From Candidatus Nomurabacteria bacterium (lineage in GTDB: Bacteria > Patescibacteriota > Patescibacteriia > UBA1558 > GWA2-36-10): 64,000 nt of DNA. The stretch covers positions 578,732-642,731 of the forward strand of contig JACKFO010000002.1 of NCBI GenBank assembly GCA_020632415.1, in the 5' to 3' direction. Position numbers and translations under genes: made by a program. The notes beneath the pieces were generated by a model. It ran no database searches. It was not told the DNA's origin and worked only from the letters and a program-made list of their open reading frames with translations. This document shows, one piece after another, positions 4,402 through 60,609 of this stretch (positions are counted from its first letter, which is position 1; each line of letters starts with the position of its first letter).

Positions 4402-5736
4402 TTACCAACAAAATTGCCAGCCTTGCGAAGAATGATCATGATAAGCCATAAATTGCCAAAAATGATCAAACTCAACAAAGGTTTCTGGTAATTTTAAGCT
4501 TTCTAAAACACTTTGATCTAAAAATATCCACTGAGCAAGCTCTTTTTGTCCTTCTAGACAAGGAGCTATTTCGTCAGAAACAGCATTTTTACCCAAAGAA
4601 CCCAAAAGCTCAACTGAATTACTCAAATAATACAAACCGTCCTGCTCTAACAAGACCAAATTAGCTAATTGCCAAGCGTCTTGCTCAGGCCAAGCTAATT
4701 TTTGCCACTCTAGGTCAGCCAAAACCAACTCTTGATATAAAGTTCCGTCTGCTAAAGTACGACTCTCCTCTTTCAAAGGCAGGCTCTCTAAAAATAAAAC
4801 CACACTTGGACGCAAATCCTGGGGGCTGACTACTAAATATTGGCCCGCTTCATTTTCCCAAAGCAAAACTTGTTGATTTAAAAACTCATCTCGCTGTAAA
4901 TTTTGCACCGGCAAGCTCTGGAAAATTTCACTGGTCAAAAATGCTTGCCAAGAACTAGGTTCTAGGTCCTGAAAATCATCAAAGGCTAAAATTGCCCGTC
5001 CTTTTTTAGGGATCAAAGCCTGCTCCCAAGAAAAATTCTCCTCTGTTTTAGTTGCTTGATAAAAATTTATTTTATTTTGATCCAAATGAACAAAAAGACT
5101 TTCTTGATCAGACCAAGGAAAGCTTAGTTCAGCGCTCTTTTTGATCAAGACCTGAGACATTTCTGGAGACAAATACAAATTTACTCCGCTTTGGCCTTTG
5201 GCTAATAAAAATTTTTCCAAAACTAAAGCTTGAAATTTATCTTTTTGCTCAGACTCTGAACTCACCAAAAAAATCTGCTTAGTTAAAGCCGTTAATTTAA
5301 CGGTTGTTGTTCTTTGATTTAAAAAATTCAGCTCCTCTTTACTTAAAGCGCCTTTGATTTTTAACAAAAAATAATCTTGCTCGGTATCTTTCTTAAACCA
5401 AATCACCTCTTCTAGTAAAGCAGAATTTTCTTGCAGTAAATCTTGAATCTGCACTAATTTTTCTTGAGCAATTTGATAATTTAAACCTGGAAAATCAGCC
5501 TCTGAAAGCTTAAGTGCTCCTGGGTCAGCCCATTGCCAATAAAAACTAGTCTCTTCTGGCAAAAAATCAAAAGCTTGCAAGCTTGGTTTCAAAGAAAACC
5601 AAAAAGCCAACGACAAAACAACCAAAATTAAAGCCACTAAGTAGACCAGTGGCTGAAATTTTTTCTTTTCTTTCCCCGGCGTCAAGCTCTGCTCAACGCC
5701 GGCGGAATTATCTTTAACTAGCTCTAAAAAATCCAC
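4402..5736 (-). CDS. Hypothetical membrane-anchored protein (N-terminal TM, large extracytoplasmic domain)
   Basis: 444 aa with a single N-terminal TM (LVYLVALILVVLSLAFWF). No recognisable motifs. Lies upstream of pnp. Confidence 0.6.
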   Translation of the reverse strand: MDFLELVKDNSAGVEQSLTPGKEKKKFQPLVYLVALILVVLSLAFWFSLKPSLQAFDFLPEETSFYWQWADPGALKLSEADFPGLNYQIAQEKLVQIQDLLQENSALLEEVIWFKKDTEQDYFLLKIKGALSKEELNFLNQRTTTVKLTALTKQIFLVSSESEQKDKFQALVLEKFLLAKGQSGVNLYLSPEMSQVLIKKSAELSFPWSDQESLFVHLDQNKINFYQATKTEENFSWEQALIPKKGRAILAFDDFQDLEPSSWQAFLTSEIFQSLPVQNLQRDEFLNQQVLLWENEAGQYLVVSPQDLRPSVVLFLESLPLKEESRTLADGTLYQELVLADLEWQKLAWPEQDAWQLANLVLLEQDGLYYLSNSVELLGSLGKNAVSDEIAPCLEGQKELAQWIFLDQSVLESLKLPETFVEFDHFWQFMAYHDHSSQGWQFCW

Positions 5737-5739
5737 TGC

Positions 5740-7962
5740 TTATTTTTTAAACTTTTTAAAAAATGGTTTTTTATCTCCTGGACGAGAGAAATCATTCTTT
5801 GGTCTTTCTTCAAAAGCTCCCTCTGGACGAGGCAATAAAGCTTTGATTGACAAAGAGGTTCTATTTTTTTCTTTATCGATATCAACAACTTTAACTTTGA
5901 CCATGTCGCCGACGTTAATTTTGTCAGTGACCTTGTTAATTCTAGTATGATCAACTTCTGAAATGTGAACCATGCCATCTTTGCCAGGTAAAATTTCAAC
6001 AATTGCTCCAATCTCAGTGCCACGATTTTTATCTTTGACAATTTGAATCACCTTGCCATCGTAAATTTCACCAACCAAAACTTCTTTGACGATGTTCTCC
6101 ACCCAAGCCTTAGCTTTGGCAGCGCCTTCTTCGTCATGTGAAGTAATCATCACTGTACCATCTTGCTCAATGTCAATCGCCACGTTACATTTGTCAATAA
6201 TTTCATTGATCACCTTACCGCCAGTACCGATCACGTCTCTAATTTTATCTGGATCAATGTGCAAAGTATCAATGCGTGGAGCGTATTGAGATAATTCTTT
6301 GCGTGGCTCAGCAATAGCTTTAGCCATTACCTCCAAAATTTGCAAACGAGCAACTTTGGCTGCCTCTAAGGTTTCCTTGACCACCTGATAAGAAATACCA
6401 CCGAGCTTAATGTCTAACTGAATTGCTGTAATGCCATCTTTAGTACCAGCAACTTTGAAATCCATATGCCCAGAATGGTCTTCAATACCCTGAATATCAG
6501 TCAACAATTGATAATGATTAGGGTCTTGATCATCCAAAACCAAACCCATGGCGATTCCAGCAACTGGAGCCTTAATTGGCACGCCAGCATCCATCAAAGA
6601 TAGAGTCGAACCACAAATCGAAGCCTGTGAAGAAGAACCGTTGGAGCCCAAAACCTCAGAAACCACTCGGATCGTATAAGGAAAATCTCCATTTTCTGGT
6701 AAAACTGCTAACAAGGCTTTTTCGGCGAGTGCTCCATGACCAATTTCTCTTCGGCCTGGTCCACGAAGTGGTTTGACTTCACCAACTGAAAAACCTGGGA
6801 AGTTATAATGATGCATGTATTTTTTGGAACCAGACTCTTCCATGCCATCTAAGGTCTGTTCGTCTCCAGGCGAGCCTAAAGTAACGATTGATAAAACTTG
6901 AGTTTCACCACGAGTGAATAAACCACTGCCGTGAGTGCGCTTCAACAAAGCAACCTCAGCTGACAAAGGCCTGATTTCTTCAAAGCCACGACCATCAGGA
7001 CGTTGTTTTTTTTCTAAAACTAATTTTTTGAAAGCAAGCTCCAAAGCAGCATCAATCATGCTCAAGCCCATTGCTCGCATATCTTTAGAAACTTCACTAT
7101 CTTCTTTTAAAATTTCATTTAGCTCATCTTCGATAGCAACAATTGCCGCTTTCATCTTTGATTTATCAGGATCAAAACAAGCGCTTAAATCTTTTGTTTC
7201 TAAAAATTGATTTACTTTGTTTTTGACTAGCTCTTTTTCTTTATTTTGTTCAGGATCAATCACTGTTTCGCGCTTAGCTTGGCCAGCTTCTTTGATCACA
7301 CTTTCAACAAAACCAACTAATTTGGCAATATGTTTTCCAGCAAACTCAATTGCTTCAAACATGGTCTTTTCTGGAACTTGTTTAGCGCCGGCCTCAATCA
7401 TAATCACCTCTTTGGCAGAGCCAGCTACGAATAATTCTAAATCACTCTTAGCTTTTGCTTCAACGCTAGGATTAATCACCCATTCTTCGCCAATGTGACC
7501 AATGGAAACACCAGCCAAAGGACCGCCCCAAACAATCGGGGAAATACCCAAGGCAATTGAAGCTGCAATCACACTTGGAAAGTCCGGATCATTAATACCG
7601 TCATAAGACAAAACCGTAATTACTACCTGCACATCGTTTCGTTCTGATTCATTGAACAAAGGACGAATCGAACGATCAATCAAACGAGCAGTTAAAACTG
7701 CTTCATCAGTTGCTCGTCCTTCACGCTTGATAAAACGAGAACCTTTGATCTTACCAGCGGCATACAAACGCTCTTCGTAATCAACCATCAAAGGAAAATA
7801 ATCAATTCCTTCTCTTGGTTTGCTAGCTGAAACTGCGGTAGCCAAAACTACTGTCTCACCATAAGACACGGTACATGAACCGTGAGCCTGTTTGGCTAAC
7901 TTGCCAATCTCCACTTCTAAGTGTTGCCCACCAATTTCTGTACTAAATTTTTGAATAGACAT
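5740..7962 (-). CDS. pnp: Polynucleotide phosphorylase (PNPase)
   Basis: Full-length PNPase: two RNase PH domains, then KH and S1 domains (…VGDMVKVKVVDIDKEKNRTSLSIK). Classic rpsO-pnp arrangement. Confidence 0.95.
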   Translation of the reverse strand: MSIQKFSTEIGGQHLEVEIGKLAKQAHGSCTVSYGETVVLATAVSASKPREGIDYFPLMVDYEERLYAAGKIKGSRFIKREGRATDEAVLTARLIDRSIRPLFNESERNDVQVVITVLSYDGINDPDFPSVIAASIALGISPIVWGGPLAGVSIGHIGEEWVINPSVEAKAKSDLELFVAGSAKEVIMIEAGAKQVPEKTMFEAIEFAGKHIAKLVGFVESVIKEAGQAKRETVIDPEQNKEKELVKNKVNQFLETKDLSACFDPDKSKMKAAIVAIEDELNEILKEDSEVSKDMRAMGLSMIDAALELAFKKLVLEKKQRPDGRGFEEIRPLSAEVALLKRTHGSGLFTRGETQVLSIVTLGSPGDEQTLDGMEESGSKKYMHHYNFPGFSVGEVKPLRGPGRREIGHGALAEKALLAVLPENGDFPYTIRVVSEVLGSNGSSSQASICGSTLSLMDAGVPIKAPVAGIAMGLVLDDQDPNHYQLLTDIQGIEDHSGHMDFKVAGTKDGITAIQLDIKLGGISYQVVKETLEAAKVARLQILEVMAKAIAEPRKELSQYAPRIDTLHIDPDKIRDVIGTGGKVINEIIDKCNVAIDIEQDGTVMITSHDEEGAAKAKAWVENIVKEVLVGEIYDGKVIQIVKDKNRGTEIGAIVEILPGKDGMVHISEVDHTRINKVTDKINVGDMVKVKVVDIDKEKNRTSLSIKALLPRPEGAFEERPKNDFSRPGDKKPFFKKFKK

Positions 7963-13396: not shown

Positions 13397-14995
13397 TTAC
13401 TTAAGCAGAGTCAACTTTTGTGCAAGGAAGCAGTTCTTGGATCGCAGTGCTACTATGTACACACCACTAGCTTCCTCAGCAAAATCAAACACCTGTCGAT
13501 GCTCGCCTGCTGAGAAAAATTGCGGTGATTGTGATTTCACTTGCCGTCCCAACAAGTCGTACACGCTGAATGTCAGCCACTGTGCCTCAGGCACCATGAA
13601 GCTGATATTGGTCTGCACGTTGAACGGATTGGGATAGCAATCCAAACTGAACTCTTGCGGCCTAGCGATCGGCTGCTCAACGGATACTTGATCCAAGAGC
13701 AAACCCCAAGCAGTAGTGACCCACTGATTGTTGAGATAATCACAAGTTGCTCCGCAATAAGTTCCAGAATTTGTAACAATCGCCTTAGTCTGAGAATAGG
13801 GTCTAGCTGCGTCATTGGCTGCCATGTAGCCCGGCAGAGAGAACTGATGACTCTCCACGAATGAAAAGCCGTCGAATTCAAACCACAGAGCTTTTTGAGT
13901 AGCCAAGCTCGACTGATACCACAGTAAGTGGTTGTCGAGCAGGTCAACAGCCATGACCAAATCGTCGATCACCAAAGAATCCAAGATCTGACCAGTTTCA
14001 GTCAGAGCAAAAAGCAAACCATGACTAGGCGTAGCACCGGAAGTAGTAGCGACCAACAAGACATCGTCCTGCCAAACCGGTACACCATACCAATGAACAC
14101 CATGATACAAAGTATCTGCAACTACTTGCTGACCATCATAGAGATCGGTCACTGTCAGCTGCAGATAATCATTCCAGTATGGATCCGAGCCCACGATACC
14201 GACGGAGTAAAGATTCCCTCCTCTAATGCTCAAACGCGAGCGGGCTTGAGGAAAATCATTTGCCGTCGTCCAGACAAACTCTCCATCGGCTGACAAGAAA
14301 GCTGTATGCTCCGAGTTCTGCAGAACAAAACCATCGGCATAAGCAATCATTGCCAGCTCTGAACTGTAGCTGTCCCCAAGATAAGTCACGGGATCATCCC
14401 GCAACAAAATGCCTGTGTTTAGATCAAGCACCTGTACGTAGTAGCTCGGTGCTTGCTGTCCACTGTGACCATCAGAAATTCCTTTGACGATCAGAAGTCG
14501 ATCGCCGTTGATCAGGGGCTGGAAACCAGCGCCCAAAGAAATTTCCAGACTGTCCAAAGGACCATCGCTCAGCGACCAATCCTCCACGAACTGCCCAGTC
14601 TGATAGTCAGGATGCAAACGATGATAGTGCATGGTGGTCGTGTTTACCTCAGTAAGAGTAAACTCGGTCTCCACCAGAACAAAACCATTGTTCTGATCAG
14701 TTACTACTTCGCCACCCGTTGCCGGATGATTGAGCAGCAACTGATCGCTGATCAGAATCGTACCTTGCGGACTGTGCACGCTGGCGTAAGCGTCACCGTA
14801 GTAAGGCGGCGCATATCCGGCATACCACAAATCCAAAATATTGTTGTCAGCCAAATTCTCAGCAAACAACGACGTTGCCGTCGGTGTCTGCGGATTGACT
14901 CGCTCCACCCAAAAGTAAGTGGAGTCGATGCCGTCTTCTTGAGCATAAACCGTGTTGCAGAACAACACGATCAAGCCCCAAAGCAGAGTCTTCAT
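13397..14995 (-). CDS. Secreted protein with a type IX secretion system (Por) C-terminal sorting domain; foreign GC-rich origin
   Basis: Signal peptide MKTLLWGLIVLFCNTVYA. The C-terminal ~80 aa (CYPNPFNVQTNISF…LTFSVYDLLGRQVK…ASGVYIVALRS…KLTLLK) match the T9SS CTD consensus. SD AAGAGGTGTGAG. GC ~53%. Confidence 0.75.
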   Translation of the reverse strand: MKTLLWGLIVLFCNTVYAQEDGIDSTYFWVERVNPQTPTATSLFAENLADNNILDLWYAGYAPPYYGDAYASVHSPQGTILISDQLLLNHPATGGEVVTDQNNGFVLVETEFTLTEVNTTTMHYHRLHPDYQTGQFVEDWSLSDGPLDSLEISLGAGFQPLINGDRLLIVKGISDGHSGQQAPSYYVQVLDLNTGILLRDDPVTYLGDSYSSELAMIAYADGFVLQNSEHTAFLSADGEFVWTTANDFPQARSRLSIRGGNLYSVGIVGSDPYWNDYLQLTVTDLYDGQQVVADTLYHGVHWYGVPVWQDDVLLVATTSGATPSHGLLFALTETGQILDSLVIDDLVMAVDLLDNHLLWYQSSLATQKALWFEFDGFSFVESHQFSLPGYMAANDAARPYSQTKAIVTNSGTYCGATCDYLNNQWVTTAWGLLLDQVSVEQPIARPQEFSLDCYPNPFNVQTNISFMVPEAQWLTFSVYDLLGRQVKSQSPQFFSAGEHRQVFDFAEEASGVYIVALRSKNCFLAQKLTLLK

Positions 14996-15178
14996 CTCAC
15001 ACCTCTTATTTTCATTGTTTTTCGTTGAAATCGATATGTAAACCAATTGGTTGATTAACCAAATGGTTATTTTGTAAAAGGACAGATCTAACTAGATACC
15101 ATAGTAAAAATAGCACATTTTGTCAATAAACAAAAAACGCCCTTCTCAAATCCGAGAAAGACGTCTCAAAAATCAATG

Positions 15179-21928: not shown

Positions 21929-24091
21929 TTATAATTTGATATTTTTTATTCGCAAACTATTTGATACCACAGAAACACTACTTAAGCTCATCGCCAACGC
22001 GGCAATCATCGGACTCAAATAACCCAAAGCCGCTAACGGAATAGCAACTACATTATAAATAAAAGCAAAAAATAAATTTTGTTTAATAATTTTAAAAGTT
22101 TTTTTGGATAATTTAATAGCACTCAAAACTGCGCGTGGATCGTTTTGCATCAAAACAATATTACCACTTTCCATCGCTACATCAGTACCCGCCCCCAAAG
22201 CAATGCCCAAATCTGCTTGAACTAAAGCCGGAGCATCGTTAATCCCATCGCCAACAAAAGCAACCACTTTACCAGCACTCTGGAGTTTCTGAATTTCTGC
22301 TACTTTTTGATCTGGCAAAACTTCGGCAATTACATTTTTTACTCCTAATTGCTGTGCGATATTTTCGGCACTGAGCTGATGATCACCAGTCAACATATAA
22401 ACTTCTAATTCTTTTGACAAAGCCTCAACAGCTGCTTTGGAGCTGGCCCTTAATTGATCAGCCACTGCTACCAAGCCTAATATTTCGCGATCTTGAATAA
22501 AATACATTACTGTCTTGCCACTAGAAGCGTATTGAATAAATTTATCTTGAAAATTTTGCTTCAAATTTAAATTTAATTCTTTGATTAATTCTAAATTACC
22601 CAAATGTATTTCACTCTTCTCCACTATGCCTCGTAAACCTTTGCCACGAATAGCCTGCACTTCTGTAGCTGCTAATAAACTTAAGTGTTTTTCTTTGCTG
22701 TAGCTGACAAAAGCTGTTGCTAAAGCATGCTCACTATTTTTTTCTACAGAACAAGCCAAAATCATCAGACGTTCTTTGGATAAACTTTCAGAAAAAGTCT
22801 CGATATCCGTCACTTGCAAACGGCCCTCAGTCAAAGTGCCGGTTTTATCAAAAACTACGGCTTGCACTTTGTGCGCTATTTCCAAACTCTGTGAATCTTT
22901 GATCAAAATACCGTTGGCCGCTCCCTTGCCACTGCCCACCATCACCGCTGTTGGCGTCGCCAAACCTAAAGCACATGGACAAGCAATGACCAAAACCGCT
23001 ACGGCATTAATCAAGCTCGCTACAAAACTGACGTCCAGCACAAAAAACCACAGCACAAAAGTAAGCGCCGCAATCACCAATACTACTGGCACAAAAATGC
23101 CAGAAACCAAATCGGCAAGTTTTTGAATCGGCGCTTTTGTATTTTGAGCATTTTCTACTAGTTTGATAATTTGAGCCAAAACTGTATCATTGCCAATTTT
23201 ATTCACCTTGACTTTGATCACGCCAAAGCTATTAATCGTCGCTCCATAAACCAAATCGCCAACTTTTTTATCAACCGGCACACTCTCTCCAGTGAGCATT
23301 GATTCGTCGATCGAAGTTTCTCCTTCAATAATTTCTCCATCCGAGGGAATTTTTTCTCCTGCCTTAACTAATAAAACATCATCTAATTTAATTTCGGCAA
23401 TATCTTTTTTAAGCTCTTCTCCGGCCACTAAAATCGTAGCTTGCTTGACGCTCAATGAAAATAACTTCTTGATCGCTGTCGAAGCTCGACCCTTGCTTTT
23501 TTCTTCCAGATATTTGCCCAACAAAATCAAAGTAATAATAATCGCTGCTGTTTCAAAATATAAATGCTGACCTGCAAACATCGCGTAAAGACTATAAAAA
23601 TAAGCAGCCAAAGTTCCCAAAGAAATCAAAGTGTCCATATTGGCCTTGAATTTTTTGAGTTGCAAAAACATTCCTCGATGGAACTGCCAACCCAGCACAA
23701 AAACAACTATTAGTGCCAAAAATTGCAGCAACCAAATATCCAAACTAATACTCAAAAAACTAGCTGACAAGTTCAGCTGATAAAACATAGAGGCCAACAA
23801 AGGTAAGCTCAAAACCAAGGCCCAAAGAAATTTATGCCAAGCCTGAGTTGTTGCTTGATCTTCTGATTTTTGATCTAAATTTTCAATCACTTTATAATCT
23901 CCCGCCCCACGCACCGCCTGATGAATATCGTCTAAAGTTGTTTTTTGATCATCAAAAACCACCGCTGCTTTACCAGTCGCATAATTGACATGTGATTTTT
24001 CCACTCCTGACAATTTACCAATACTCTTTTCTAAGCTCACCGCGCAGCTAGCGCAATGCATGCCAGCAATTTGAATATTTATTTCTTTCAT
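21929..24091 (-). CDS. copA: Copper-translocating P1B-type ATPase
   Basis: N-terminal HMA ([10 protein letters not shown]), CPC motif ([11 protein letters not shown]), [17 protein letters not shown]. Confidence 0.95.
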
Positions 24092-24099
24092 ATCTTTAT

Positions 24100-25437
24100 T
24101 TATTCAATAATAAACTGCCCTCTAACCATGCCCATCCAACAAGAAAAGTTTATTTTTCCTGTTTTTTTTGGCGTAAACTCAATAATATTATCTCCTTTAG
24201 TCAGAGATTTTTGAATGCCTAAATCTGGCACGATAATTTGATTGGTACAGCCCGAAGCTTGCGTGCCATCAATAATCCATTTGACTGGTACGTCTTTTTT
24301 TAGATAAAAAACACTAGGATTATAACCGCTGTAATCAATCCCCATTTTGATCACTTGCTGATCATCTTGGTTTAAAACAGCAGTCCCTTTTTCTTGAAAC
24401 AAGCTACCAAAATAAATGCCCCTCACTGCTAAACCAGACGATAAAGTATAAAGAGCGAAAACTAAAAGCAACAAACCAATCGCTTTTTCAAAAACTATAC
24501 TTTTCAAATGCTGAAAACGAGAAGTTGTCGAACCGACTAAAAATAAAACTGGCGCCGTACCTAAAGCAAATAAAAACAAAGTAAAGGCACCAAGCCAAAA
24601 ATTACCAGAGCTAATCGCGAATAACTGCATACTTTGCGTAAATCCACAGGGCAAGAAAAAAGTAAAAGCTCCCAAAAGCAATGGTGCTGCTTTGTGTTCT
24701 GAGTTTTTTAATTTTTGCCAAATTTTAAAACTGCTTTTTGGCATACTTAAACCAAATTTTGTTAGACTTGGTAATAAGCCTAAAATATTTAAAGCCAGCC
24801 ATAGCAAAACTAAAGCTACTAAAATTGTCAGCCAAGAAAAAAAGGAAGTCGACAAACTAATCTTACTTCCCAACCAACCCAAAGCTCCTCCCAAAATAAA
24901 AAATGAACTTAAACGTCCCACGTGAAATAACAAATGTGGCTCGACATTACGTTGCCAAGCAGTGCCGCGACTTTGATATTTAGCGGCAAAAGAAATCACC
25001 ACTCCACCAACTACTGCCAAACAACTAGACAAAGAAGCGACAATGCCAATCATAAAAGCGGCGCCAAAATTGATATCACTAGGATTGAAATCTAGCCAAC
25101 TCAACACTCCAATCCACTGAAAATATAAATAAATCAAGTACAAAGCAAGAACAATCAAAACTGAATAAAACCACTGTTCTAAAGTAGCTGACTTTTTCTT
25201 GATAGCTTGCAGCTGACTTTGCTCAAGAGCGCAACCGTAACCCATTTTTTCAATTTTTTGTTTTAATTCCGGCCAAGGCAGATCACCAAGATATTCAATT
25301 TCTGCACTTTGAGTTTTAACCGAAGCTTTGACTCGGACGATACCCGAAATGCTCTGCGCCTCTTCTTTGATAATATTTTCACAAGAAACACAAGTCAAGC
25401 CTGCTAAATATATTTTTTTATTTTTGACTGCGGGCAT
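24100..25437 (-). CDS. Membrane protein with an N-terminal HMA domain, a DsbD_2-like polytopic core with intramembrane Cys, and a C-terminal cupredoxin-like domain (putative copper handling)
   Basis: HMA box [10 protein letters not shown]. Eight TM helices with SSCLAV and LPCGFTQ motifs. C-terminal beta-domain ending [12 protein letters not shown] resembles pseudoazurin Cys/Met ligands. Sits between csoR and copA with 2-9 nt gaps. Confidence 0.6.
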
Positions 25438-50652: not shown

Positions 50653-51495
50653 CTACTCACAAGCACATAAACGATAAAAATACAGGTAGACCTCTGAGCA
50701 AGTATACGCTGGGTTGGCTGCATCAGAAAAACAATAGTGCCCACCTCCAGCAAAATCTGGATCGAGTTTTGCTGGTGCATAAGGCTGACCATCTGCAACG
50801 GTACACCCACCCGTGCAATCTAAGCCCGCTGCAGCGTGTAAACTACAATCACCCGATGCCTCCACTACATCCGCTACGCAGGTCAAAGCATTCTCAGAAC
50901 AAACCTCTGTACAAGTCATGCCAGTAGCGCTGGCTACATACCAACAATAGCCACCAAAATCAGTTCCACCGCAAGAAGGAGCAGTCGCAATTGCTACTTT
51001 AATTTGCGTATTAAAAACCACTTCTGAATCTGCATAATCACAAGAGCCAATCAATAAATTACCAGCAGCATCGCCTGTTAAATAATAGCCAGTATCTGCA
51101 GAATTTATTTTTTCTGGATCAACCGGCAAAGTAGCTAAATAAGAATCCAAAAAATCAGTCGAACTATCAACGACCAAACACTCTAGCTCATCACCGGCAC
51201 AAGTTAGAGTAGTCGCTGTGTCACACAAGACTTTCTTAGTGGTCGTAATCTCTCCAGTAATTGGTAATTGTCCTTGGTTATTTCGAACATAGTCTTTCAA
51301 GGCTTGCGCAACGACCAAAATATCCTGATTTCTTCTAGAGTCTTTAGCGGCATTCAGACGGGTAGCTGGATCAACAGCAACCCAAAGGCCAGCGGCCAAG
51401 ATAACAAACACCGCAAGCGAGACAATTAAACCTGGCAAACTAAATCCTTTGTTATTTACCACTTTATTCTCCCCTAAATTTTCTGAAAAACTCAT
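50653..51495 (-). CDS. Type IV pilin-like or pseudopilin-like protein with a non-canonical N-terminus (no Glu5) and a Cys-rich C-terminal domain
   Basis: Leader …NNKG then FSLPGLIVSLAVFVILAAG, where KGF-S-L-P-G replaces the canonical KGFTLIE. The C-terminal 110 aa contain about 16 Cys. GC is somewhat elevated (~45%). Confidence 0.55.
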   Translation of the reverse strand: MSFSENLGENKVVNNKGFSLPGLIVSLAVFVILAAGLWVAVDPATRLNAAKDSRRNQDILVVAQALKDYVRNNQGQLPITGEITTTKKVLCDTATTLTCAGDELECLVVDSSTDFLDSYLATLPVDPEKINSADTGYYLTGDAAGNLLIGSCDYADSEVVFNTQIKVAIATAPSCGGTDFGGYCWYVASATGMTCTEVCSENALTCVADVVEASGDCSLHAAAGLDCTGGCTVADGQPYAPAKLDPDFAGGGHYCFSDAANPAYTCSEVYLYFYRLCACE

Positions 51496-52659
51496 AAAAT
51501 AATTATAACATTTCAAAAATCAAAAAAACAGCCCTCATGCTTTGTGCTGAAGACTGTTTTTTTGCGCGATTATGGATTTAAGGCGATGACTTATTTTGTT
51601 GTTGGTCTTTTTCAAGGACTAACAAGTCGTCTTCTGGTCTAATACTTAAATCATCTTCTGTTTTCTTCATCAGAGCATTATTGGTCTTTTCAGACTCCTC
51701 GCTCTGATCTCTTGATTGATTTGAAAAGGGCATGAGCAAATTTTGTTTTAATTTTTTAAGCATACAAAGTATACGGTGCCCAACTAAATAATAGTAAGAT
51801 TAAAACGGGCGTCCACGTATTTTGTATTATTTTGATTTGCATATTTTTAAAATTAAGCAGTAAAAATTGCCGTTTCTAAAATAAATAGAGCGAGCAATAA
51901 CCAGCTTTCATGGGTCTCCCAATTAGGAGAGGCTTTGCGACTTGATAAGCGAAATGATTTTTGACACTGACAATTTTCGCTTCCACATTTTTGACATTCC
52001 ATATTTTTGTTTTTATTTTTATTAATTTTTTTATTAAATAGTTGGAGCCATTGAAACCATGAGCATAAAAGACAAGACTGCGCATAGGGTCACAATCGCC
52101 CAGTACTCTCCGCTTCTCAATTTTTCATTTTTGTGACTTGAAACAAGTCGAAACGATAATACTTTGGACATAGTTTTAATTTTTAAATATTTTAAATAAA
52201 TTCGTGGATTTTAAAATAAATTATTTTTGCCCACCGCCCAGATCAGCAAAAATGCCCCGGCTGAACAAAAACTTATTAATAACCAATAATCACTATTTTG
52301 AAGATGCCGATCCTTCCAGCTTAAAACCAAACGAAAAGAATGAACTTCCTCATACGTAGGGCTTAAGGCCCAAGGATCATTGGCTCTAACTAAACGAAAT
52401 GATTGATTTTCTTGATTATTCATAAAGCTTAATAAAAAATAAAAGCTGGCTATTTAACGAAAAGAAAAGACTTTCCGAAAAATCTTGCCAACTTTTATTA
52501 TTGATAAATACATCATAGCAGAAAAATTTGCTTTTGTCAATCTGATTAATCTCATTTTTATACTAATATTAGCCAAAATAAATAAAATCTAAGGCTGATT
52601 TTGACAAGAAAAATACTCTTTGCTATACTTTAGTAAACTAAAGTAAGCTAAAAAAACCA

Positions 52660-52977
52660 ATGAAATCAAGCTTAAACTACAATCAACAATTATTCCAAGC
52701 CTTTTTACAATTAAAAAACTCTGAAGAATTGGGACGTTTTTGCCATGATTTATTAAGTCCTAGTGAAATCAGGGAAGTTTCTGCTCGTTTTCAAGCCGCC
52801 AAAATGCTCAAAAACAAAATCTCCTACCAAGTGATTATTGCGGAGACTGGACTTTCTTCAGCCACGATTGCCAAAATTTCCCGCAATCTCAAAAATAGCC
52901 GCGGTGGCTATAAATTAGCTTTCAAAAGACTTAGTGATCGTAAATTGCATCTTGAAAAGAAAACTAATAACTGTTAA
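52660..52977 (+). CDS. TrpR-like (YerC/YecD family) DNA-binding protein
   Basis: GLSSATIAKISRNLKNS helix-turn-helix signature of the Trp-repressor family. Confidence 0.65.
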   Translation: MKSSLNYNQQLFQAFLQLKNSEELGRFCHDLLSPSEIREVSARFQAAKMLKNKISYQVIIAETGLSSATIAKISRNLKNSRGGYKLAFKRLSDRKLHLEKKTNNC

Positions 52978-53000
52978 CATAAATCAAATAATAAAAAAAT

Positions 53001-53213
53001 ATGAAAATTGAAGTAGAACGAGAACTATGTATCAGTGTTGCTGCTTGTTTGCAAGCTGCGCCAAATACTTTTGAGCTAGATGACGAAGGAATTGCAATTG
53101 TCAAAAATCCAAGTGGTGATGACAAAGAAGCAATTTTAAAAGCAGCGATGAGCTGCCCAGTCAACGCTATCATTGTCCATGATGATGACGGCACACAACT
53201 TTGGCCAAAATAA
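53001..53213 (+). CDS. Single-cluster ferredoxin (Pyrococcus-type [3Fe-4S]/[4Fe-4S])
   Basis: C-x5-C … CP ligand pattern (ELCISVAAC … SCPVNAI), 70 aa. Confidence 0.6.
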   Translation: MKIEVERELCISVAACLQAAPNTFELDDEGIAIVKNPSGDDKEAILKAAMSCPVNAIIVHDDDGTQLWPK

Positions 53214-53284
53214 TTTGGCTGATCACTAGTAGCTTATCAAATTTAAACTACTAGCGATTAGCTAAAAAATTATCATTTATATAT

Positions 53285-53752
53285 ATGAAAGATTATAAAG
53301 ACATTGCCCCGATCAAAGTCGGTGACAAAGCTCCTCTATTTACTTTAAAAAATCAACGAGGAGAAAAAATATCTTTAAAAAACTTTTTGGGCAAACAAAA
53401 TGTTTTATTAATCTTTTATCCAGGAGACAATACCCCCGGCTGCACCAAACAACTTTGCGCAATCAGAGATGATTTTTCTCAATTTCAAAGCAAAGATACT
53501 GTTGTTTTTGGCATAAATCAAGCTGACCCTGATTCTCACCAAAAATTTATCGATAACTATCAATTTCCTTTTGATTTATTGATCGACACAGATCGTCAAA
53601 TTTCAGCCAAATATAAAGCAATGAAATTTATGTTTGGTCACCCAAGCATTTTACGCTCTGTAGTCTTAATCAATCCAGAAGGAAAAATAATCTTTTTAAA
53701 ACGTGGTCTGCCAGAAAACAAAGAAATTTTGGCAGCATTAAATAATCATTAA
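53285..53752 (+). CDS. bcp: Peroxiredoxin, Bcp type (thiol peroxidase)
   Basis: FYPGDNTPGCTKQLCAIRD, with the peroxidatic Cys in a PGCT context. Confidence 0.8.
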   Translation: MKDYKDIAPIKVGDKAPLFTLKNQRGEKISLKNFLGKQNVLLIFYPGDNTPGCTKQLCAIRDDFSQFQSKDTVVFGINQADPDSHQKFIDNYQFPFDLLIDTDRQISAKYKAMKFMFGHPSILRSVVLINPEGKIIFLKRGLPENKEILAALNNH

Positions 53753-53763
53753 TTTGTAATTAT

Positions 53764-54387
53764 ATGAAATATACAACGCCCCTATTGCCTTATGCTTATA
53801 ATGCCTTAGAGCCTTATATCGACCAGGCAACTATGGAAATTCACCATGATAAACATCATGTTGCTTATACAAGCAAGCTCAACGCTGCCTTAGAAGCGCA
53901 TCCAGACTTATTTAACAAAAGCGCTGAAGAATTATTAGCTGGCCTAGAAACATTGCCAGCCGAAATCAAACTAGCTGTCCAAAACAATGGTGGCGGACAT
54001 GTTCATCATAGTTTTTTCTGGGAAATTTTACGTCCTGGCACAGAAAATAATTTACCCGCCGGAGAAATAGCCAAGGCTATCAACGATACTTTTGGTTCTT
54101 TTGAAAAATTTCAAGAAGAATTTGCAAATGCCGCCTCTACTGTTTTTGGTTCTGGCTGGGCTTGGCTGGTTATAGATCCTTCGACAGACTCAGGAGAATT
54201 AAAAATTACCAAAACATCAAATCAAGACAGTCCCTATTCACTTGGACAAATTCCTCTTTTGGGACTCGACGTTTGGGAACACGCTTATTATCTAAAATAC
54301 CAAAATCGTCGTCCAGAATATATAGAAAATTTTTGGCCAATTGTGAACTGGGACAAAATAAACGAATTATATTTAAAAAATAAATAA
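53764..54387 (+). CDS. sodA: Fe/Mn superoxide dismutase
   Basis: EIHHDKHH … DVWEHAYYL metal-ligand motifs. Confidence 0.9.
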   Translation: MKYTTPLLPYAYNALEPYIDQATMEIHHDKHHVAYTSKLNAALEAHPDLFNKSAEELLAGLETLPAEIKLAVQNNGGGHVHHSFFWEILRPGTENNLPAGEIAKAINDTFGSFEKFQEEFANAASTVFGSGWAWLVIDPSTDSGELKITKTSNQDSPYSLGQIPLLGLDVWEHAYYLKYQNRRPEYIENFWPIVNWDKINELYLKNK

Positions 54388-54416
54388 ATTAAATAACTAA
54401 ACATTAAATCAAAATT

Positions 54417-55070
54417 ATGAATACAGAAAATATGAACGAATGTTGTGGTGGCAATTGTGGCTGCAGTGACACAGAAGAAATGTCTTCTTGTTGTTGCGGA
54501 ACTTGCTCACCAAAAATAGGTCAAGCTGCGCCAAAATTTCAAACCGAAGCTTACCACGAAGAACAAGTCAAAAAAATTTCTTTAAATGATTATAAAGGAA
54601 AATGGCTAATCTTATTTTTCTACCCAGCCGACTTTACTTTTGTTTGTCCAACTGAGCTTGGAGATTTAGCCGATCACTACGAAGAGATCCAAAAACTTAA
54701 TACCGAAATTTTATCAGTCAGCACTGACACAGTTTTTGTTCACAAAGCTTGGCATGAAGATTCAGAGACAATCAAGAAAATCAAATTTCCAATGGTCGCT
54801 GATCCAACTGGTAAAATCACTCGTTCTTACGGCGTGATGATTGAAGAAGAAGGTCTTGCCTTACGCGGAACTTTTATCATTGATCCTGAAGGAAAATTAA
54901 GAACAATCGAAATCCACGGTGATGGCATCGGACGTTCTAGTAAAGAACTATTACGCCGATTACAAGCTGCACAATTTGTCCATAAATACGGTGACCAAGT
55001 TTGTCCAGCAAACTGGGAGCCAGGCGCTGACACTTTGAAACCAGGTTTGGACTTAGTCGGTAAAATCTAA
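54417..55070 (+). CDS. Typical 2-Cys peroxiredoxin (AhpC/Prx1) with a 35-aa Cys-rich N-terminal extension
   Basis: Peroxidatic FTFVCPTEL and resolving VCPANW. The N-terminus MNTENMNECCGGNCGCSDTEEMSSCCCGTCSP has 9 Cys. Confidence 0.8.
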   Translation: MNTENMNECCGGNCGCSDTEEMSSCCCGTCSPKIGQAAPKFQTEAYHEEQVKKISLNDYKGKWLILFFYPADFTFVCPTELGDLADHYEEIQKLNTEILSVSTDTVFVHKAWHEDSETIKKIKFPMVADPTGKITRSYGVMIEEEGLALRGTFIIDPEGKLRTIEIHGDGIGRSSKELLRRLQAAQFVHKYGDQVCPANWEPGADTLKPGLDLVGKI

Positions 55071-55092
55071 GATACTTACAAAACAAAAAAAT

Positions 55093-55125
55093 AAGCCCCT
55101 AAGACATTTGGGGTTTATTTTTTTA
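55093..55125 (+). terminator. Rho-independent terminator of the redox operon
   Basis: AAGCCCCTAAGACATTTGGGGTTT followed by ATTTTTTT. Confidence 0.65.
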
Positions 55126-55173
55126 CAAAAATTTTGGCAGAAAATTAGAATTTAAGTTATACTTAATTCAGAT

Positions 55174-55238
55174 GGCGCAAAGCTACCTTAAAAATCTCTG
55201 AACAGAGACGGTAGGAACTAAATTTAGTTTCTATCGCC
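55174..55238 (+). promoter_or_regulatory. Structured 5' leader (candidate three-way-junction RNA) upstream of the beta-CASP RNase gene
   Basis: P1 GGCG/CGCC. P2 AGCTACC…GGTAGG encloses the hairpin TCTCTGAACAGAGAC. P3 is a perfect hairpin GAACTAAA-TTTAGTTC. A candidate promoter TTGGCA-N17-TTATAC sits at 55131-55160. Confidence 0.35.
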
Positions 55239-55264
55239 TCTCTTTAGAATAAATTAATACAAAA

Positions 55265-57073: not shown

Positions 57074-57651
57074 ACACCGCTGGGGATTCTTTTAATTTAA
57101 CTAGCTTATTAAATTATCTCCTCTGATTAAGAGGATTTTCTACTTCTTGAGTATTGCGATCATCTTGTTTTTGCTCGAGTCGTGGATATTTTTCACTATC
57201 CAGATCACCGACAAATAAAACTGGATCAACCAAGTCTTTGGCTGAGGTTTTTGGTGGACCATTTTTTACAAATGGTTTTTTGAATCTTTTTTTGTTGTTA
57301 GTCTTATTTTTCTTAAAATTAAAAGCCATATTTTTCTTAAAATTATACCTGCAATATAGCAAAGAAAGCAGCCAAAGGCAATCAGAGCCGTCAATGTTAG
57401 ACTTTTTTTAACAATCGCTTTATAATAAAGACCCTTCAGCTTAAACAAAATACTCACAAAAATACCCGATTTAAGCTGAAAAAAATAAAATTTGGTCTGA
57501 TGCTATATTGTGTGCTATAATACTTTTGAGCACTAGATATAGTGTCTGCACTAACAAACTAAAGCTAAACAATTTTTATTTTGGCTTATTTTTTTCCAAA
57601 AAAATCATTAAAAAAATTAATTTAAATAAAATCATTAAACAAAAAAACAAT

Positions 57652-60609
57652 ATGCTCCAAGTAATCACTAAGCGTAATGGCCAAAACGAACAATTTGACC
57701 AGAACAAAATTACTTCTTCCTTAAAAGAAAGCATTGTCAGCGTGGGCTTAAAAGACAATCCCCTGGCTCCCAAGCTCAGTGAAGAAGTTATGAGCTACCT
57801 GAGTGAAAATCATGAGCTTAGTGCAATTACTACTGACGATATCCGCAGTGCAGTCAATATTGTTTTGTTAGAAAATGACTTGCCTCAAGTAGCCAAAGCT
57901 TACTTTAAGCATCGTGATCAAAAAAAATCTCCCAAAACCCAAAGCAGCGAAGTCAAAAAAATCAAAAAGAGAGACGGTAGCATTGTTGACTTTGATCAAA
58001 CCAAAGTAGCTACCGCCATTCAGAAGGCAGGCCTAGCCACTGGTGAATTTGATGCTCCAGAAGCGCAAAAATTAGCTGATATTGTGATCGGCGTTTTGGA
58101 TCATAAATTTGACGGTCATATTATCCCTAGCGTTGAAGAAATCCAAGATGTGATTGAGATCATTTTGATTCAATCCAACTGGGCCAAAACCGCCAAAGCT
58201 TTTATTCTTTATCGTGAGCAGAGAAAAAAAGCTAGACTTGAACACGGCAAAGAAGTGACTTGCCAAGAAGTCAAAGACTTAGAAGAGAAAAATGTCTTTT
58301 TGAGCAAACAGGCCAAACATATTTTAAATCAATCAACCAATTTTGATACTTTGGGTCGAATTATTTTTTTGGATCGTTATTCAATCAAAGAAAAAAGAGA
58401 AGATATTGAACGCGGTGATTTGGTGATTGTGATTACCAAAGAAGACCGCAAATATCCAAAAAAAGATTTGGGTATTATCAAAGAAATGCTAGAAGGTGAC
58501 AGAGTGATTTTAGAAATGTTGACTGGCATTTATGCTGACGCTGAAAACAACTTTGAATTCACTCAAGACTTATACAAATGCGACAAGCCAATCGAATCAA
58601 TCGCCGATTCTCATCGTCGTATTGCCAAAGCTGTTGCTTCTGTCGAAAAATCCGATGAAAAAAAACAACAATCTTTTGAAAGCTTTTTTGAAGAACTACA
58701 CGAAAAACACATTCAGCCAGCTGGTCGAATTATGACCGGTGCCAATGTTGATACCAAAGACCACTATACCGCCAATCTGACTTTATTTAATTGCTACGTC
58801 ATTCCTTCTCCTGCTGACTCTCGTCGCGGCATCATCCAAGACACGCTTTATCAGATGGTAGAGATCATGTCTCGCGGTGGTGGTGTAGGCATGTCCTTGA
58901 GCGCTCTTCGCCCTCGCTATGCTTATGTCAAAGGCGTCCACGGCAAATCATCAGGCTCAGTTTCTTGGGGTGGACTTTTCTCTTATACAACTGGCTTGAT
59001 TGAGCAAGGCGGCTCCCGCCGAGGGGCTTTGATGCTGATGCAATGGGACTGGCATCCAGATGTCATCAATTTTATTGAAAGTAAAACCCAAGCAGGCATG
59101 ATCGAAAATGCCAATATCTCAGTGATGGTTTCCGACAAATTTATGGAAGCAGTCAAAAATGATAGTCCTTGGAATTTGGAATTTCCAGATTACGAAAGTC
59201 CAAACATCAAAGAAATTTATGAAAAAAATTGGACTGGCGATTTACATGCTTGGAAAAAAATGGGCTACCCAACTCGCGTTTACAAAACTATTCCTGCTCG
59301 CGAACTTTGGAACAAGATTATTGGCTCTGCTCATGCTTCTGCTGAACCAGGCATTGTCTTTATGGAACGTTACAATAAGATGTCAAACTCTTATTATTTC
59401 AACAACGTCATTGCCACCAACCCTTGTGGCGAACAAGGACTTCCTGGTTGGGGTGTCTGTAATTTAGGTCATTTATACTTAGCTTCTTTTGCTGAAAATG
59501 TTGGCGAAGATCAAACTGGCCCACTATACAAGATGAACTGGAACGCTTTGAAAAAATCTGCCCGCACTTTGACTCGCTTTTTAGACAATGTGATTGATTT
59601 GACTCCTTACTATTTCAAAGAAAACGAAGACAACCAAAAATCCGAACGCCGAATTGGCGGTGGAACCTTGGGCTTAGGAGAATTGTTGATCAAATTACGC
59701 ATGCGTTATGGCTCTGATGAATCTCTAGAGTTCATCGACAAAATCTACAGCACAATCACTGAAGAAATGTACAAAGCCTCAGCAGAGCTTGCGGAAGAAA
59801 AAGGCGCCTTTCCAAAATTCGAAGCCGACAAATTCTTAGAATCTGGCTTTATGAAAACTATGCCCGAGTCTGTTCGAGAAATCATCCGTGAAAAAGGTAT
59901 TCGTAATGTCACTTTGACCACCCAAGCTCCAACTGGTACCGTCGGCTCAATGCTTGGCACTTCAACTGGCATTGAACCATATTATGCTTTCAAATTCTTT
60001 AGACAAAGCCGTTTAGGATTTCATGAAGTCTTTATTCCTTTGGCTGAAATCTATCAAAATGCCGAAGAAAAATTACCAGACTTTTTTGCTTCAGCGATGG
60101 ACTTAAGTCCGATGGATCACATCCGTGTCCAAGCTGCTGTCCAACGCTGGACTGACTCCTCTATCTCCAAAACTGCCAATGCACCAGCAAACTTCACCGT
60201 CGAAGAAACTGCTGAGCTTTATGAAAAGGCTTATGAACTTGGTTGCAAAGGCGTGACAATTTATCGTGATAATTCTCGTACCGAACAAGTTTTGTCAACT
60301 GACGCTAATACGGAAAAGAAAAATCTTTCTTACAATGGAAAAAATACCGAAACTGGCAAAGGAGCAATCGAAGAAAAAGAACCAGTCGTCGCTTTTGCAG
60401 AAATTGATAAGGTGGAAATGCTAGAAATGCAAAATCCCAAAAAACATTTTGAATTAAAACAAGAAGTAGAAGAAGAAACTGAACTCAAATACAGCTCCAC
60501 AGCCGGAGATATTTGCCCACAATGTAAACAAGGCGTGATGGTTAAGCTCGGAGGCTGTACAGAATGTAGTAAACAGTGTGGTTTCAAAGGAAGTTGTGAT
60601 ATGAAATAG
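57652..60609 (+). CDS. nrdJ: Class II (adenosylcobalamin-dependent) ribonucleotide reductase with two N-terminal ATP-cones and a C-terminal Cys4 zinc ribbon
   Basis: Two ATP-cone signatures (VITKRNGQNEQFDQNKI; VKKIKKRDGSIVDFDQTKV). Catalytic NPCGEQGLP. C-terminal CPQC…CTEC. Start moved to ATG 57652 (MLQVITK). The upstream part of the ORF-track ORF is AT-rich leader. Confidence 0.9.
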   Translation: MLQVITKRNGQNEQFDQNKITSSLKESIVSVGLKDNPLAPKLSEEVMSYLSENHELSAITTDDIRSAVNIVLLENDLPQVAKAYFKHRDQKKSPKTQSSEVKKIKKRDGSIVDFDQTKVATAIQKAGLATGEFDAPEAQKLADIVIGVLDHKFDGHIIPSVEEIQDVIEIILIQSNWAKTAKAFILYREQRKKARLEHGKEVTCQEVKDLEEKNVFLSKQAKHILNQSTNFDTLGRIIFLDRYSIKEKREDIERGDLVIVITKEDRKYPKKDLGIIKEMLEGDRVILEMLTGIYADAENNFEFTQDLYKCDKPIESIADSHRRIAKAVASVEKSDEKKQQSFESFFEELHEKHIQPAGRIMTGANVDTKDHYTANLTLFNCYVIPSPADSRRGIIQDTLYQMVEIMSRGGGVGMSLSALRPRYAYVKGVHGKSSGSVSWGGLFSYTTGLIEQGGSRRGALMLMQWDWHPDVINFIESKTQAGMIENANISVMVSDKFMEAVKNDSPWNLEFPDYESPNIKEIYEKNWTGDLHAWKKMGYPTRVYKTIPARELWNKIIGSAHASAEPGIVFMERYNKMSNSYYFNNVIATNPCGEQGLPGWGVCNLGHLYLASFAENVGEDQTGPLYKMNWNALKKSARTLTRFLDNVIDLTPYYFKENEDNQKSERRIGGGTLGLGELLIKLRMRYGSDESLEFIDKIYSTITEEMYKASAELAEEKGAFPKFEADKFLESGFMKTMPESVREIIREKGIRNVTLTTQAPTGTVGSMLGTSTGIEPYYAFKFFRQSRLGFHEVFIPLAEIYQNAEEKLPDFFASAMDLSPMDHIRVQAAVQRWTDSSISKTANAPANFTVEETAELYEKAYELGCKGVTIYRDNSRTEQVLSTDANTEKKNLSYNGKNTETGKGAIEEKEPVVAFAEIDKVEMLEMQNPKKHFELKQEVEEETELKYSSTAGDICPQCKQGVMVKLGGCTECSKQCGFKGSCDMK

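Follow-up and report, generated by a model that had tools for sequence, protein, structure and literature searches.

Introduction

The canonical AhpC of Salmonella typhimurium and Escherichia coli (C22) is tail-less and has ahpF immediately downstream of its gene, and the Clostridium pasteurianum system comprises Cp20 (AhpC), the glutaredoxin (Grx)-like Cp9 and the thioredoxin reductase (TrxR)-like Cp34. N-terminal extensions occur on several other peroxiredoxins (Prx): that of human Prx4 carries a Cys that links subunits, and in the 29-kDa Cys-rich Prx of Entamoeba histolytica, a typical 2-Cys Prx, a Cys-rich extension precedes the fold. The first 23 residues of the Entamoeba protein are flexible, and an otherwise unexplained density at the centre of the decamer ring has been assigned to them (PMC13532219); a part in activity has been ascribed to the extension (PMC4009108). 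The N-terminal extension of Leishmania mTXNPx projects into the ring lumen, where it serves client binding (PMC6368585). Here we analyse a 64,000-nucleotide stretch of a Candidatus Nomurabacteria genome (hereafter the window; contig JACKFO010000002.1) in which the last gene of a five-gene oxidative-stress operon encodes an AhpC-type typical 2-Cys peroxiredoxin that begins with a Cys-rich tail. The organism belongs to the Patescibacteria, a group of bacteria with very small genomes, for the most part uncultured and thought to live as oxygen-sensitive symbionts.

We are nearly certain of the following taken together: the operon, the AhpC identity of its last product, the translation of and selection on the tail, and the distribution of the tail across a whole clade. 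Judged from sequence, this is not a new system; what is new is a clade-wide conserved, selected Cys tail on a known AhpC enzyme. A literature search for Cys-rich AhpC in bacteria of the candidate phyla radiation (CPR), in Parcubacteria or in DPANN archaea found no paper.

An AhpC-type peroxiredoxin behind an N-terminal extension

By every sequence criterion tested, the window peroxiredoxin is a member of the AhpC family without an AhpF partner in cis. It passes the AhpC equivalog model TIGR03137 narrowly (275.9 bits, cut-off 272) and falls below the cut-off of the PrxU model NF040737 (216.6 bits, cut-off 270), and Pfam places PF00578 at residues 34-163 (E = 2.6e-44) and PF10417 (1-cysPrx_C) at residues 184-209. 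Residues 40-217 align with residues 9-186 of S. typhimurium AhpC over 178 gap-free residues at 56% identity, that is, over the whole fold, with the same motifs around the peroxidatic (Cp) and resolving (Cr) Cys and reaching the LDLVGKI C-terminal end specific to the AhpC type. In an alignment of 53 sequences, P70 and C77 of the PxxxTxxC motif (given with Cys77 in Table 1) never vary and T74 hardly does; R150 of LALRGTF is likewise invariant, and C196 falls on the resolving Cys of the S. typhimurium enzyme. The fold starts at about residue 32-40 in Pfam and PDB alignments, and an AlphaFold2 monomer model gives the core a pLDDT of 88-97. Alignment to AhpC thus places the full fold after the tail, as a reading of this DNA from its letters alone (the sequence-only reading) had proposed.

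The genomic setting differs from that of canonical AhpC: where the canonical gene is tail-less and followed by ahpF, the tailed window gene is followed by a terminator and then by a gene for a beta-CASP RNase, and an AhpF-type flavoprotein gene (~520 aa, two CxxC) is absent beside it.

Evidence for translation of and selection on the tail

Comparison with close relatives argues that the tail is translated and under selection. We aligned the DNA of the window with that of the three closest genomes found, Parcubacteria GW2011_GWA2_36_10 (L001), L002 and L003 (proteins 83-85% identical). The ATG and all eight Cys codons of the tail are kept in all four genomes, with synonymous TGT/TGC swaps at seven of the eight Cys codons and zero non-synonymous changes, while the acidic linker that separates the Cys blocks shows no conservation and carries a 21-nt indel that stays in frame. 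In the nine closest loci (L001-L009) the frame stays open for only 2-9 codons ahead of the ATG, the first ATG and an M-x-[EK]-E-N N-terminus are kept across more than 100 homologues, and the identical 217-aa product with the same start has been called in four independent public metagenome assemblies.

These observations bear directly on the possibility, named beforehand in the sequence-only reading as the one that would overturn it, that the extension is untranslated and that the true start is a downstream Met. In its favour, the ATG at 54417 lacks a Shine-Dalgarno sequence, but so does every gene of the operon. The internal M22 is unconserved, being replaced by Gln, Ser or Asn in L001 and L003. 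The Cys codons of the first block, which lie upstream of it, are kept with synonymous changes, and after codon 22 no further ATG precedes the fold. Because the ATG and Cys codons are kept, M22 is variable, the frame closes shortly upstream and the same start is called in four assemblies, we reject a downstream start as extremely improbable.

A clade-wide trait of CPR AhpC

N-termini rich in Cys are the norm among proteins closely related to that of the window. A survey of the 120 top-ranking database relatives and of 80 genome loci (L-numbered) recorded them in metagenome-assembled genomes (MAGs) of Patescibacteria, Parcubacteria, Komeilibacteria and Yonathbacteria. A neighbour-joining tree built from 183 distinct core sequences puts the window protein in a patescibacterial clade of 86 leaves, 85 of which carry at least two tail Cys and 73 at least four; the Cys count within the clade ranges from 2 to 9, and the tails persist down to ~64-70% core identity. 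Outside the clade, at least two tail Cys are found in 21 of the other 97 leaves, spread over several separate branches and including the DPANN members L011 (Nanoarchaeota), L013 (an archaeon), L071 (Woesearchaeota) and L029 (Pacearchaeota). The Cys tail is therefore a clade-wide trait of CPR AhpC with sporadic recurrence in DPANN archaeal relatives. The sequence-only reading had called such a Cys density on a peroxiredoxin unusual and suggested a search of CPR genomes for similar N-termini: the density is indeed far above chance, while the idea of a single odd gene gives way to a trait of patescibacterial AhpC at large.

The closest described likeness is the Entamoeba Prx, and the resemblance is probably convergent, because the two proteins fall into different Prx subfamilies and their tails lack sequence similarity. 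The top match of the window protein is S. typhimurium AhpC; the Entamoeba sequence used here, which was not drawn from a database record (the PDB sequence copy lacks it), best matches human PRDX1/2 and is presumably of Prx1 type. In that sequence the tail is rich in Lys and an additional helix comes after it, whereas the CPR tail, acidic and with much Gly and Asn, leads directly into strand 1. The extensions of mTXNPx and Prx4 differ in another respect, as neither is a Cys-rich cluster and mTXNPx uses hydrophobic and aromatic residues, which the CPR tail lacks.

Composition, motifs and predicted disorder of the tail

The window protein does begin with the string quoted in the sequence-only reading, which had counted nine Cys in it; the DNA encodes eight (listed by block in Table 1). 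They form two four-Cys blocks with an acidic linker between them and are spaced CC-x3-C-x-C ... CCC-x2-C. Given 1.4% Cys in the long open reading frame (ORF) segments of the window, the chance of at least eight Cys in 32 residues is ~1e-8.

Tail statistics were drawn from 77 distinct tails with at least four Cys. They are 18-40 residues long and consist of 23% Cys, 12% Glu, 11% Asn, 10% Gly and 7% Asp (19% Asp plus Glu), nearly without hydrophobic residues (F, W, L, V and I at most ~1% each, Y 2.4%). The pair CC occurs in 74 of the 77, CCG in 51, CxxC in 47, CxC in 44 and CCGG in 34. Two motifs recur, CCGG-x-C-(x)-C near the N-terminus and C-x-N-[C/H]-T-P-K-I next to the fold; counted back from the fold anchor, position -7 is Cys in 74% of the tails and position -5 is Asn in 60/77, while position -4 is occupied by Cys in 52% of them and by His in 16%. 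Both CCGG and C-x-N-[CH]-T-P far exceed compositional expectation.

No known domain accounts for these sequences. No Pfam or NCBIfam model covers the tail, and the check for a rubredoxin-like or metallothionein-like profile, which the sequence-only reading had recommended, came back empty for both as well as for zinc ribbons. Seven representative tails searched against Pfam at E up to 10 gave sub-threshold toxin-family noise only, phmmer with tail residues 1-33 against 1.84 billion representatives gave zero matches at E <= 0.001, a 40-aa tail query gave zero word-sharing candidates, and no other protein among all ORFs of the window and the 80 related loci carries a similar N-terminal tail, the one related case there being the C-terminal Cys tail of a Fur-like protein in L013. 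AlphaFold2 assigns residues 1-29 a pLDDT below 50. Because profile and phmmer searches gave no match and pLDDT is low, the tail is best modelled as a disordered, compositionally defined appendage with no known domain. The likeness to metallothioneins drawn in the sequence-only reading thus holds for composition and motifs and fails at the level of a profile match. A signal peptide or lipoprotein was considered and rejected, as the tails lack a hydrophobic stretch, and a precursor like those of ribosomally synthesized and post-translationally modified peptides is unlikely, as no maturase-like family is found among the recurrent neighbour genes.

High variability in length, Cys number and sequence, the predicted disorder without a domain match, and the existence of close and presumably functional tail-less relatives are what one would expect of a tolerated low-complexity N-terminal expansion with no specific function, under weak or indirect selection such as on translation initiation or stability. 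We consider this improbable. Cys is costly and reactive and makes up little of the proteins encoded in the window; the eight Cys codons are held while the linker drifts; the tails extend over nearly the entire clade and down to the core identities given above; similar tails appear in several separate DPANN branches; and the recurrent motifs exceed what composition alone would produce.

A candidate soft-metal site in the lumen of the ring

From sequence, the role of the tail is probably metal binding or a store of reducing power. Our preferred reading, to which we give a little less than an even chance, is that the tails form a metallothionein-like, SlyD-tail-like site for a soft metal (Zn, Cu(I), Ni or Fe). 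By homology, the N-termini of (alpha2)5 rings of the AhpC/Prx1 type would point into the central hole, and since each ring would carry ten tails, ~80 thiolates would be gathered within its lumen. There, the site might sequester a Fenton-active or thiophilic metal beside the peroxidase, cross-brace the decamer, or both, while the core would keep reducing peroxide via Cp and Cr, using a thioredoxin-type reductant encoded elsewhere in the genome. In line with such a geometry, the flexible N-termini of Leishmania 2-Cys Prx form a belt at the decamer centre (PMC6368585), the central density of the Entamoeba ring lies at the same place (PMC13532219), and rings of N-terminally His-tagged Prx trap Ni-coated gold particles inside (PMC8023583).

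Several features of the tails favour a metal. Their density of CC, CxC and CxxC is metallothionein-like; as in metallothioneins, ~23-30% of the residues are Cys in such motifs, hydrophobic residues are few, length is variable, and there is no fold without metal. The alternation of Cys and His at position -4 fits a ligand rather than a disulfide partner. The first Cys block resembles the Ni/Zn-binding tail of SlyD, which is likewise disordered, contains Cys and is appended to a folded enzyme: the tail of E. coli SlyD (GCCGGKGNGGCGCH / ...EGCCGGKGNGGCGCH; sequence verified) has GCCGG twice and ends in GGCGCH, to be compared with ECCGGNCGC in the window protein. The SlyD tail is His/Cys-rich and binds Ni2+ and Zn2+ (PMC3292732). 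It sits at the C-terminus and is dominated by His, whereas the CPR tail sits at the N-terminus and consists largely of Cys and acidic residues, His being scarce. Other Cys-containing metal motifs are EEGCC of Helicobacter Hpn and CxxCGC at the N-terminus of HypB. Finally, a metal is favoured by a Fur/PerR-like regulator with a similar tail beside the Cys-tailed Prx of L013. In this archaeal MAG, a Fur/PerR-family protein (5562-5984) bears a Cys-rich C-terminal tail, GCCNSCDCDKECDCGSEDCKCK, which replaces the usual C-terminal CxxC ending seen in the L012 homologue, and its gene lies directly upstream of a prx (6001) with the Cys-rich N-terminal tail MCKENCDCEHCICCKDENF.

Other observations weigh against a metal site. 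Cys number and spacing vary widely, so that there would be no fixed stoichiometric site, and the second block has become aromatic in some clade members (YYDNSTPKI, LWHNHTPTI). In addition to the null profile and phmmer searches described above, the strong acidity of the tail is unusual for classical metallothioneins, from which it further differs in being fused to an enzyme and in having only 2-4 Cys in some members; rubredoxins and zinc ribbons have two CxxC knuckles of fixed spacing, which are absent from the tail. The operon contains no metal-handling gene, the SlyD likeness is a short motif without detectable homology, and the lumen geometry is borrowed by analogy from Prx1-type rather than AhpC-type structures.

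Elsewhere in the window, at 21929-25437 on the minus strand and 30 kb from the operon, lies an apparent heavy-metal cluster: a P1B-type ATPase (720 aa, with an N-terminal HMA domain) is followed by an unusual 445-aa fusion of HMA, DsbD_2 (a CcdA-like membrane thiol-disulfide transporter) and a cupredoxin-like domain. The cluster suggests that the organism handles a thiophilic metal.

Possible thiol chemistry and the genes that neighbour the peroxiredoxin

The main rival to the soft-metal site, possible and on balance doubtful, is a redox-active tail whose eight thiols form reversible disulfides within or between chains. The tail might then be a reservoir of reducing equivalents, a relay that resolves the Cp sulfenic acid (Cp-SOH) or the Cp-Cr disulfide, or an oxidation-triggered staple of the decamer, and in any of these forms it would partly stand in for a dedicated AhpC reductase. 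The neighbourhoods of related genes, compared over ~6 kb on each side of prx, agree with such a substitution. In the tail-less bacterial loci L070, L074, L077 and L078, AhpF is encoded downstream; in the tail-less loci L014, L032, L036, L055, L066, L042, L052, L053 and L057, prx is accompanied by a Grx-like gene, with or without a TrxR-like one; and neither AhpF nor Grx-like or TrxR-like neighbours were found at any of 21 Cys-tailed loci (Fisher's test without phylogenetic correction, p = 0.017 with all these genes pooled, p = 0.10 with TrxR/AhpF only). This contrast is nevertheless confounded by phylogeny, as it sets CPR against DPANN and other bacteria. The 64-kb window itself contains no thioredoxin (Trx), TrxR, AhpF or Grx motif.

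Evidence from the tails themselves is divided. Even Cys counts are somewhat favoured (49 of the 77 tails), leaving an odd count in 28, and the Entamoeba extension is said to aid enzymatic activity (PMC4009108, PMC13532219). On the other hand, replacement of Cys by His at position -4, or by aromatic residues, is unexpected for a disulfide partner, and the core already keeps its own resolving Cys, so that an extra one would be unneeded. Vicinal CC and CCC runs, moreover, form disulfides poorly, a matter of established chemistry that counts against a redox-active tail.

The reductase genes beside tail-less DPANN peroxiredoxins deserve a description of their own. At L014, L032, L036, L055 and L066 (and at L042, L052, L053 and L057), a 76-80-aa Grx/NrdH-like CxxC protein and a 305-319-aa TrxR-like flavoprotein flank prx, a pair like Cp9 and Cp34 (for example in L014 and L066) that is found at none of the 21 tailed genes. 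In the window, a ribonucleotide reductase large subunit is encoded at 57508-60609 on the plus strand, with two ATP-cone matches and a C-terminal CPQC...CTEC...C cluster; this enzyme is a client of the thioredoxin type, yet the window has no thioredoxin gene.

Ferredoxin linkage and a possible Fe-S centre

The presence of a ferredoxin gene in the operon raises another reading, in which the tail ligates an Fe-S cluster that is fed by the co-transcribed ferredoxin and lies beside the redox-active disulfide, much as in ferredoxin:thioredoxin reductase; such an AhpC would depend on ferredoxin and could do without AhpF and thioredoxin. The ferredoxin is the best conserved product of the cluster (89-90% identity in L001-L003, 67-71% in L005-L009), and its gene lies at most 4 kb upstream of prx in seven of the nine closest loci, L001-L009. 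In the more distant CPR loci L005-L009 the order is fdx-(bcp)-nifS-nifU-sod-patatin-prx, with nifS and nifU between fdx and sod. Each block of the tail holds four Cys, no dedicated reductase is encoded nearby, and disordered Cys-rich regions can hold Fe-S clusters, as in Dre2/anamorsin. We nonetheless regard this reading as distinctly improbable. Many members of the clade have only 2-4 tail Cys without fixed spacing, and the CPC-x16-CPC-x8-CHC type of spacing that marks ferredoxin:thioredoxin reductase is absent from the tails. Ferredoxin linkage does not track the tail, because ferredoxin-like genes also lie directly upstream of tail-less prx in DPANN (L045, L061). Homologues of nifS, nifU and the patatin gene are absent from the window, and a cluster beside a peroxide-reducing site would probably be oxidatively fragile. 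As an observation on these loci, an 84-89-aa 2Fe-2S-ferredoxin-like gene lies near prx in 10 loci, often directly upstream.

An extension of these ideas, which we consider unlikely, is that the tails form a metal-thiolate or Fe-S centre in the AhpC ring that is coupled to catalysis, for example fed by ferredoxin, or that they make the ring a metal-storage cage as well as a peroxidase. In the former case, CPR would have a ferredoxin-driven AhpC without need of AhpF or thioredoxin; in the latter, the ring would follow a Dps-like logic on a Prx scaffold. The tails of separate DPANN branches and of Entamoeba would then be convergent solutions of small anaerobes and symbionts. More generally, it is tempting to speculate that a Cys appendage is a cheap way to give an abundant ring enzyme metal buffering, reducing capacity or electron entry, and the CPR tail may also explain the role of the Entamoeba extension. 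If the tail is a plain metal sponge, it would be a modest addition to peroxiredoxin diversity.

The operon and its control elements

The prx gene closes a cluster of five co-directional ORFs on the plus strand (52660-55070; Table 1) in the order yerC-like, ferredoxin, bcp, sod and prx, with intergenic gaps of 23, 71, 11 and 29 nt. A terminator scan found a single intrinsic terminator after the last gene and no second plus-strand terminator-like site within the cluster, in agreement with the sequence-only reading; the terminator hairpin also appears in the minimum-free-energy fold of 55071-55264. That reading's assignment of the cluster as an oxidative-stress operon is borne out by synteny in three related Parcubacteria/Patescibacteria genomes, with yerC-fdx-bcp-sod-prx-betaCASP in L001 and L002 and the same order without bcp in L003, and by conservation of its promoter and palindrome.

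The sigma-70-type promoter lies 31 nt upstream of the first gene, and both of its hexamers are unchanged in the window and in L001, L002 and L003 while the spacer between them diverges. The inverted repeat that overlaps the -10 hexamer is perfect over 9+9 nt, and its ACTTTAG..CTAAAGT core is also found upstream of yerC in L001-L003. Because it is unchanged in the four close genomes while the flanking DNA diverges, we suggest that this 18-20-bp palindrome may be an operator, possibly for the YerC/TrpR-like product itself, with both site and binder proposed from sequence. An Rfam scan of the whole window found three tRNAs only and no known RNA element in or beside the operon.

The first product belongs to the YerC/YecD family, with 75.5 bits against TIGR02531 (cut-off 42.2, passed) and E = 1.2e-19 for PF01371, and its gene heads the cluster in L001, L002 and L003. 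A true TrpR was considered and rejected (TIGR01321, 19.4 bits against a cut-off of 67.25). The ferredoxin has three Cys only (C10, C16 and C52; CxxVxxC...CP), a pattern typical of a [3Fe-4S] cluster. The top NCBIfam match of the Bcp-type protein is thiol peroxidase NF006960, and the superoxide dismutase (SOD) scores 235 bits with the Mn-type and 174 bits with the Fe-type NCBIfam model, both under the equivalog cut-offs.

Table 1 Features of the operon and of the tailed peroxiredoxin (window positions)
Feature	Position	Strand	Remarks
Sigma-70-type promoter	52601..52629	+	TTGACA-17-TATACT, TG upstream; 11/12 consensus positions
Palindrome TACTTTAGT-aa-ACTAAAGTA (whole: TACTTTAGTAAACTAAAGTA)	52626..52645	none	candidate operator overlapping -10 hexamer
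YerC/YecD-family TrpR-like helix-turn-helix protein, 105 aa	52660..52977	+	TIGR02531, PF01371
Single-cluster ferredoxin, 70 aa	53001..53213	+	Fer4_15 and Fer4_13 matches
Bcp/PrxQ-type peroxiredoxin, 155 aa	53285..53752	+	PF00578, E = 1.7e-34; CxxxxC pair C53, C58
Fe/Mn superoxide dismutase, 207 aa	53764..54387	+	Sod_Fe_N, Sod_Fe_C
AhpC-type typical 2-Cys peroxiredoxin, 217 aa	54417..55070	+	TIGR03137; N-terminal Cys-rich tail
Cys-rich tail, residues 1-32 (MNTENMNECCGGNCGCSDTEEMSSCCCGTCSP)	54417..54512	+	acidic, Gly/Asn-rich, 8 Cys
Cys block A, CCGGNCGC (C9, C10, C14, C16)	54441..54464	+	persists in shortest tails (MEKENCCGGGC...)
Cys block B, CCCGTC (C25, C26, C27, C30)	54489..54506	+	directly before strand 1 of fold
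Peroxidatic Cys77 codon	54645..54647	+	inside YPADFTFVCPTE
Resolving Cys196 codon	55002..55004	+	inside VCPANW; invariant in 53-sequence alignment
Intrinsic terminator	55085..55124	+	A-run, GCCCC...GGGG hairpin (55097-55113), T-run; terminator scan

Other observations in and around the operon

The spacer between the ferredoxin and bcp genes (53209-53271) holds an imperfect 28-nt inverted repeat, 79% complementary, with ACTAGT/ACTAGC half-sites that recall Trp-repressor operators; the repeat is not found in the shorter L001 and L002 spacers. Downstream of the operon, the 194-nt intergenic region before the beta-CASP/RMMBL ribonuclease gene (which starts at 55265) has a folding z-score of -6.3. 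It contains a long, strong hairpin at 55197-55248 on the plus strand, without an Rfam match, which lies downstream of promoter-like sites at 55122-55163 and is presumably part of the 5' leader of that gene.

Just upstream of the operon, at 51853-52423 on the minus strand, three tandem small ORFs (49, 45 and 70 aa) share an SFRL(V/S) motif, after which come a Trp and, at the C-terminus, a hydrophobic segment; the ORF of 49 aa begins MECQKCGSENCQCQK. In L001 a homologous 66-aa ORF (ENKIQSFRLS...) occupies the corresponding position, and members of this family turned up only in four tail-bearing loci. At 50653-51516 on the minus strand lies the gene of a 287-aa protein whose hydrophobic N-terminus (GFSLPGLIVSLAVFVILA) is type IV pilin-like and whose C-terminal half is rich in Cys; Pfam gave no match for it, and its counterparts at the same position in L001-L003 are 45-49% identical. 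Finally, a 549-aa protein encoded at 13397-15046 on the minus strand combines Cys-dense stretches with a Por_Secre_tail domain, the C-terminal sorting domain of type IX secretion, in what is apparently a Patescibacteria genome.

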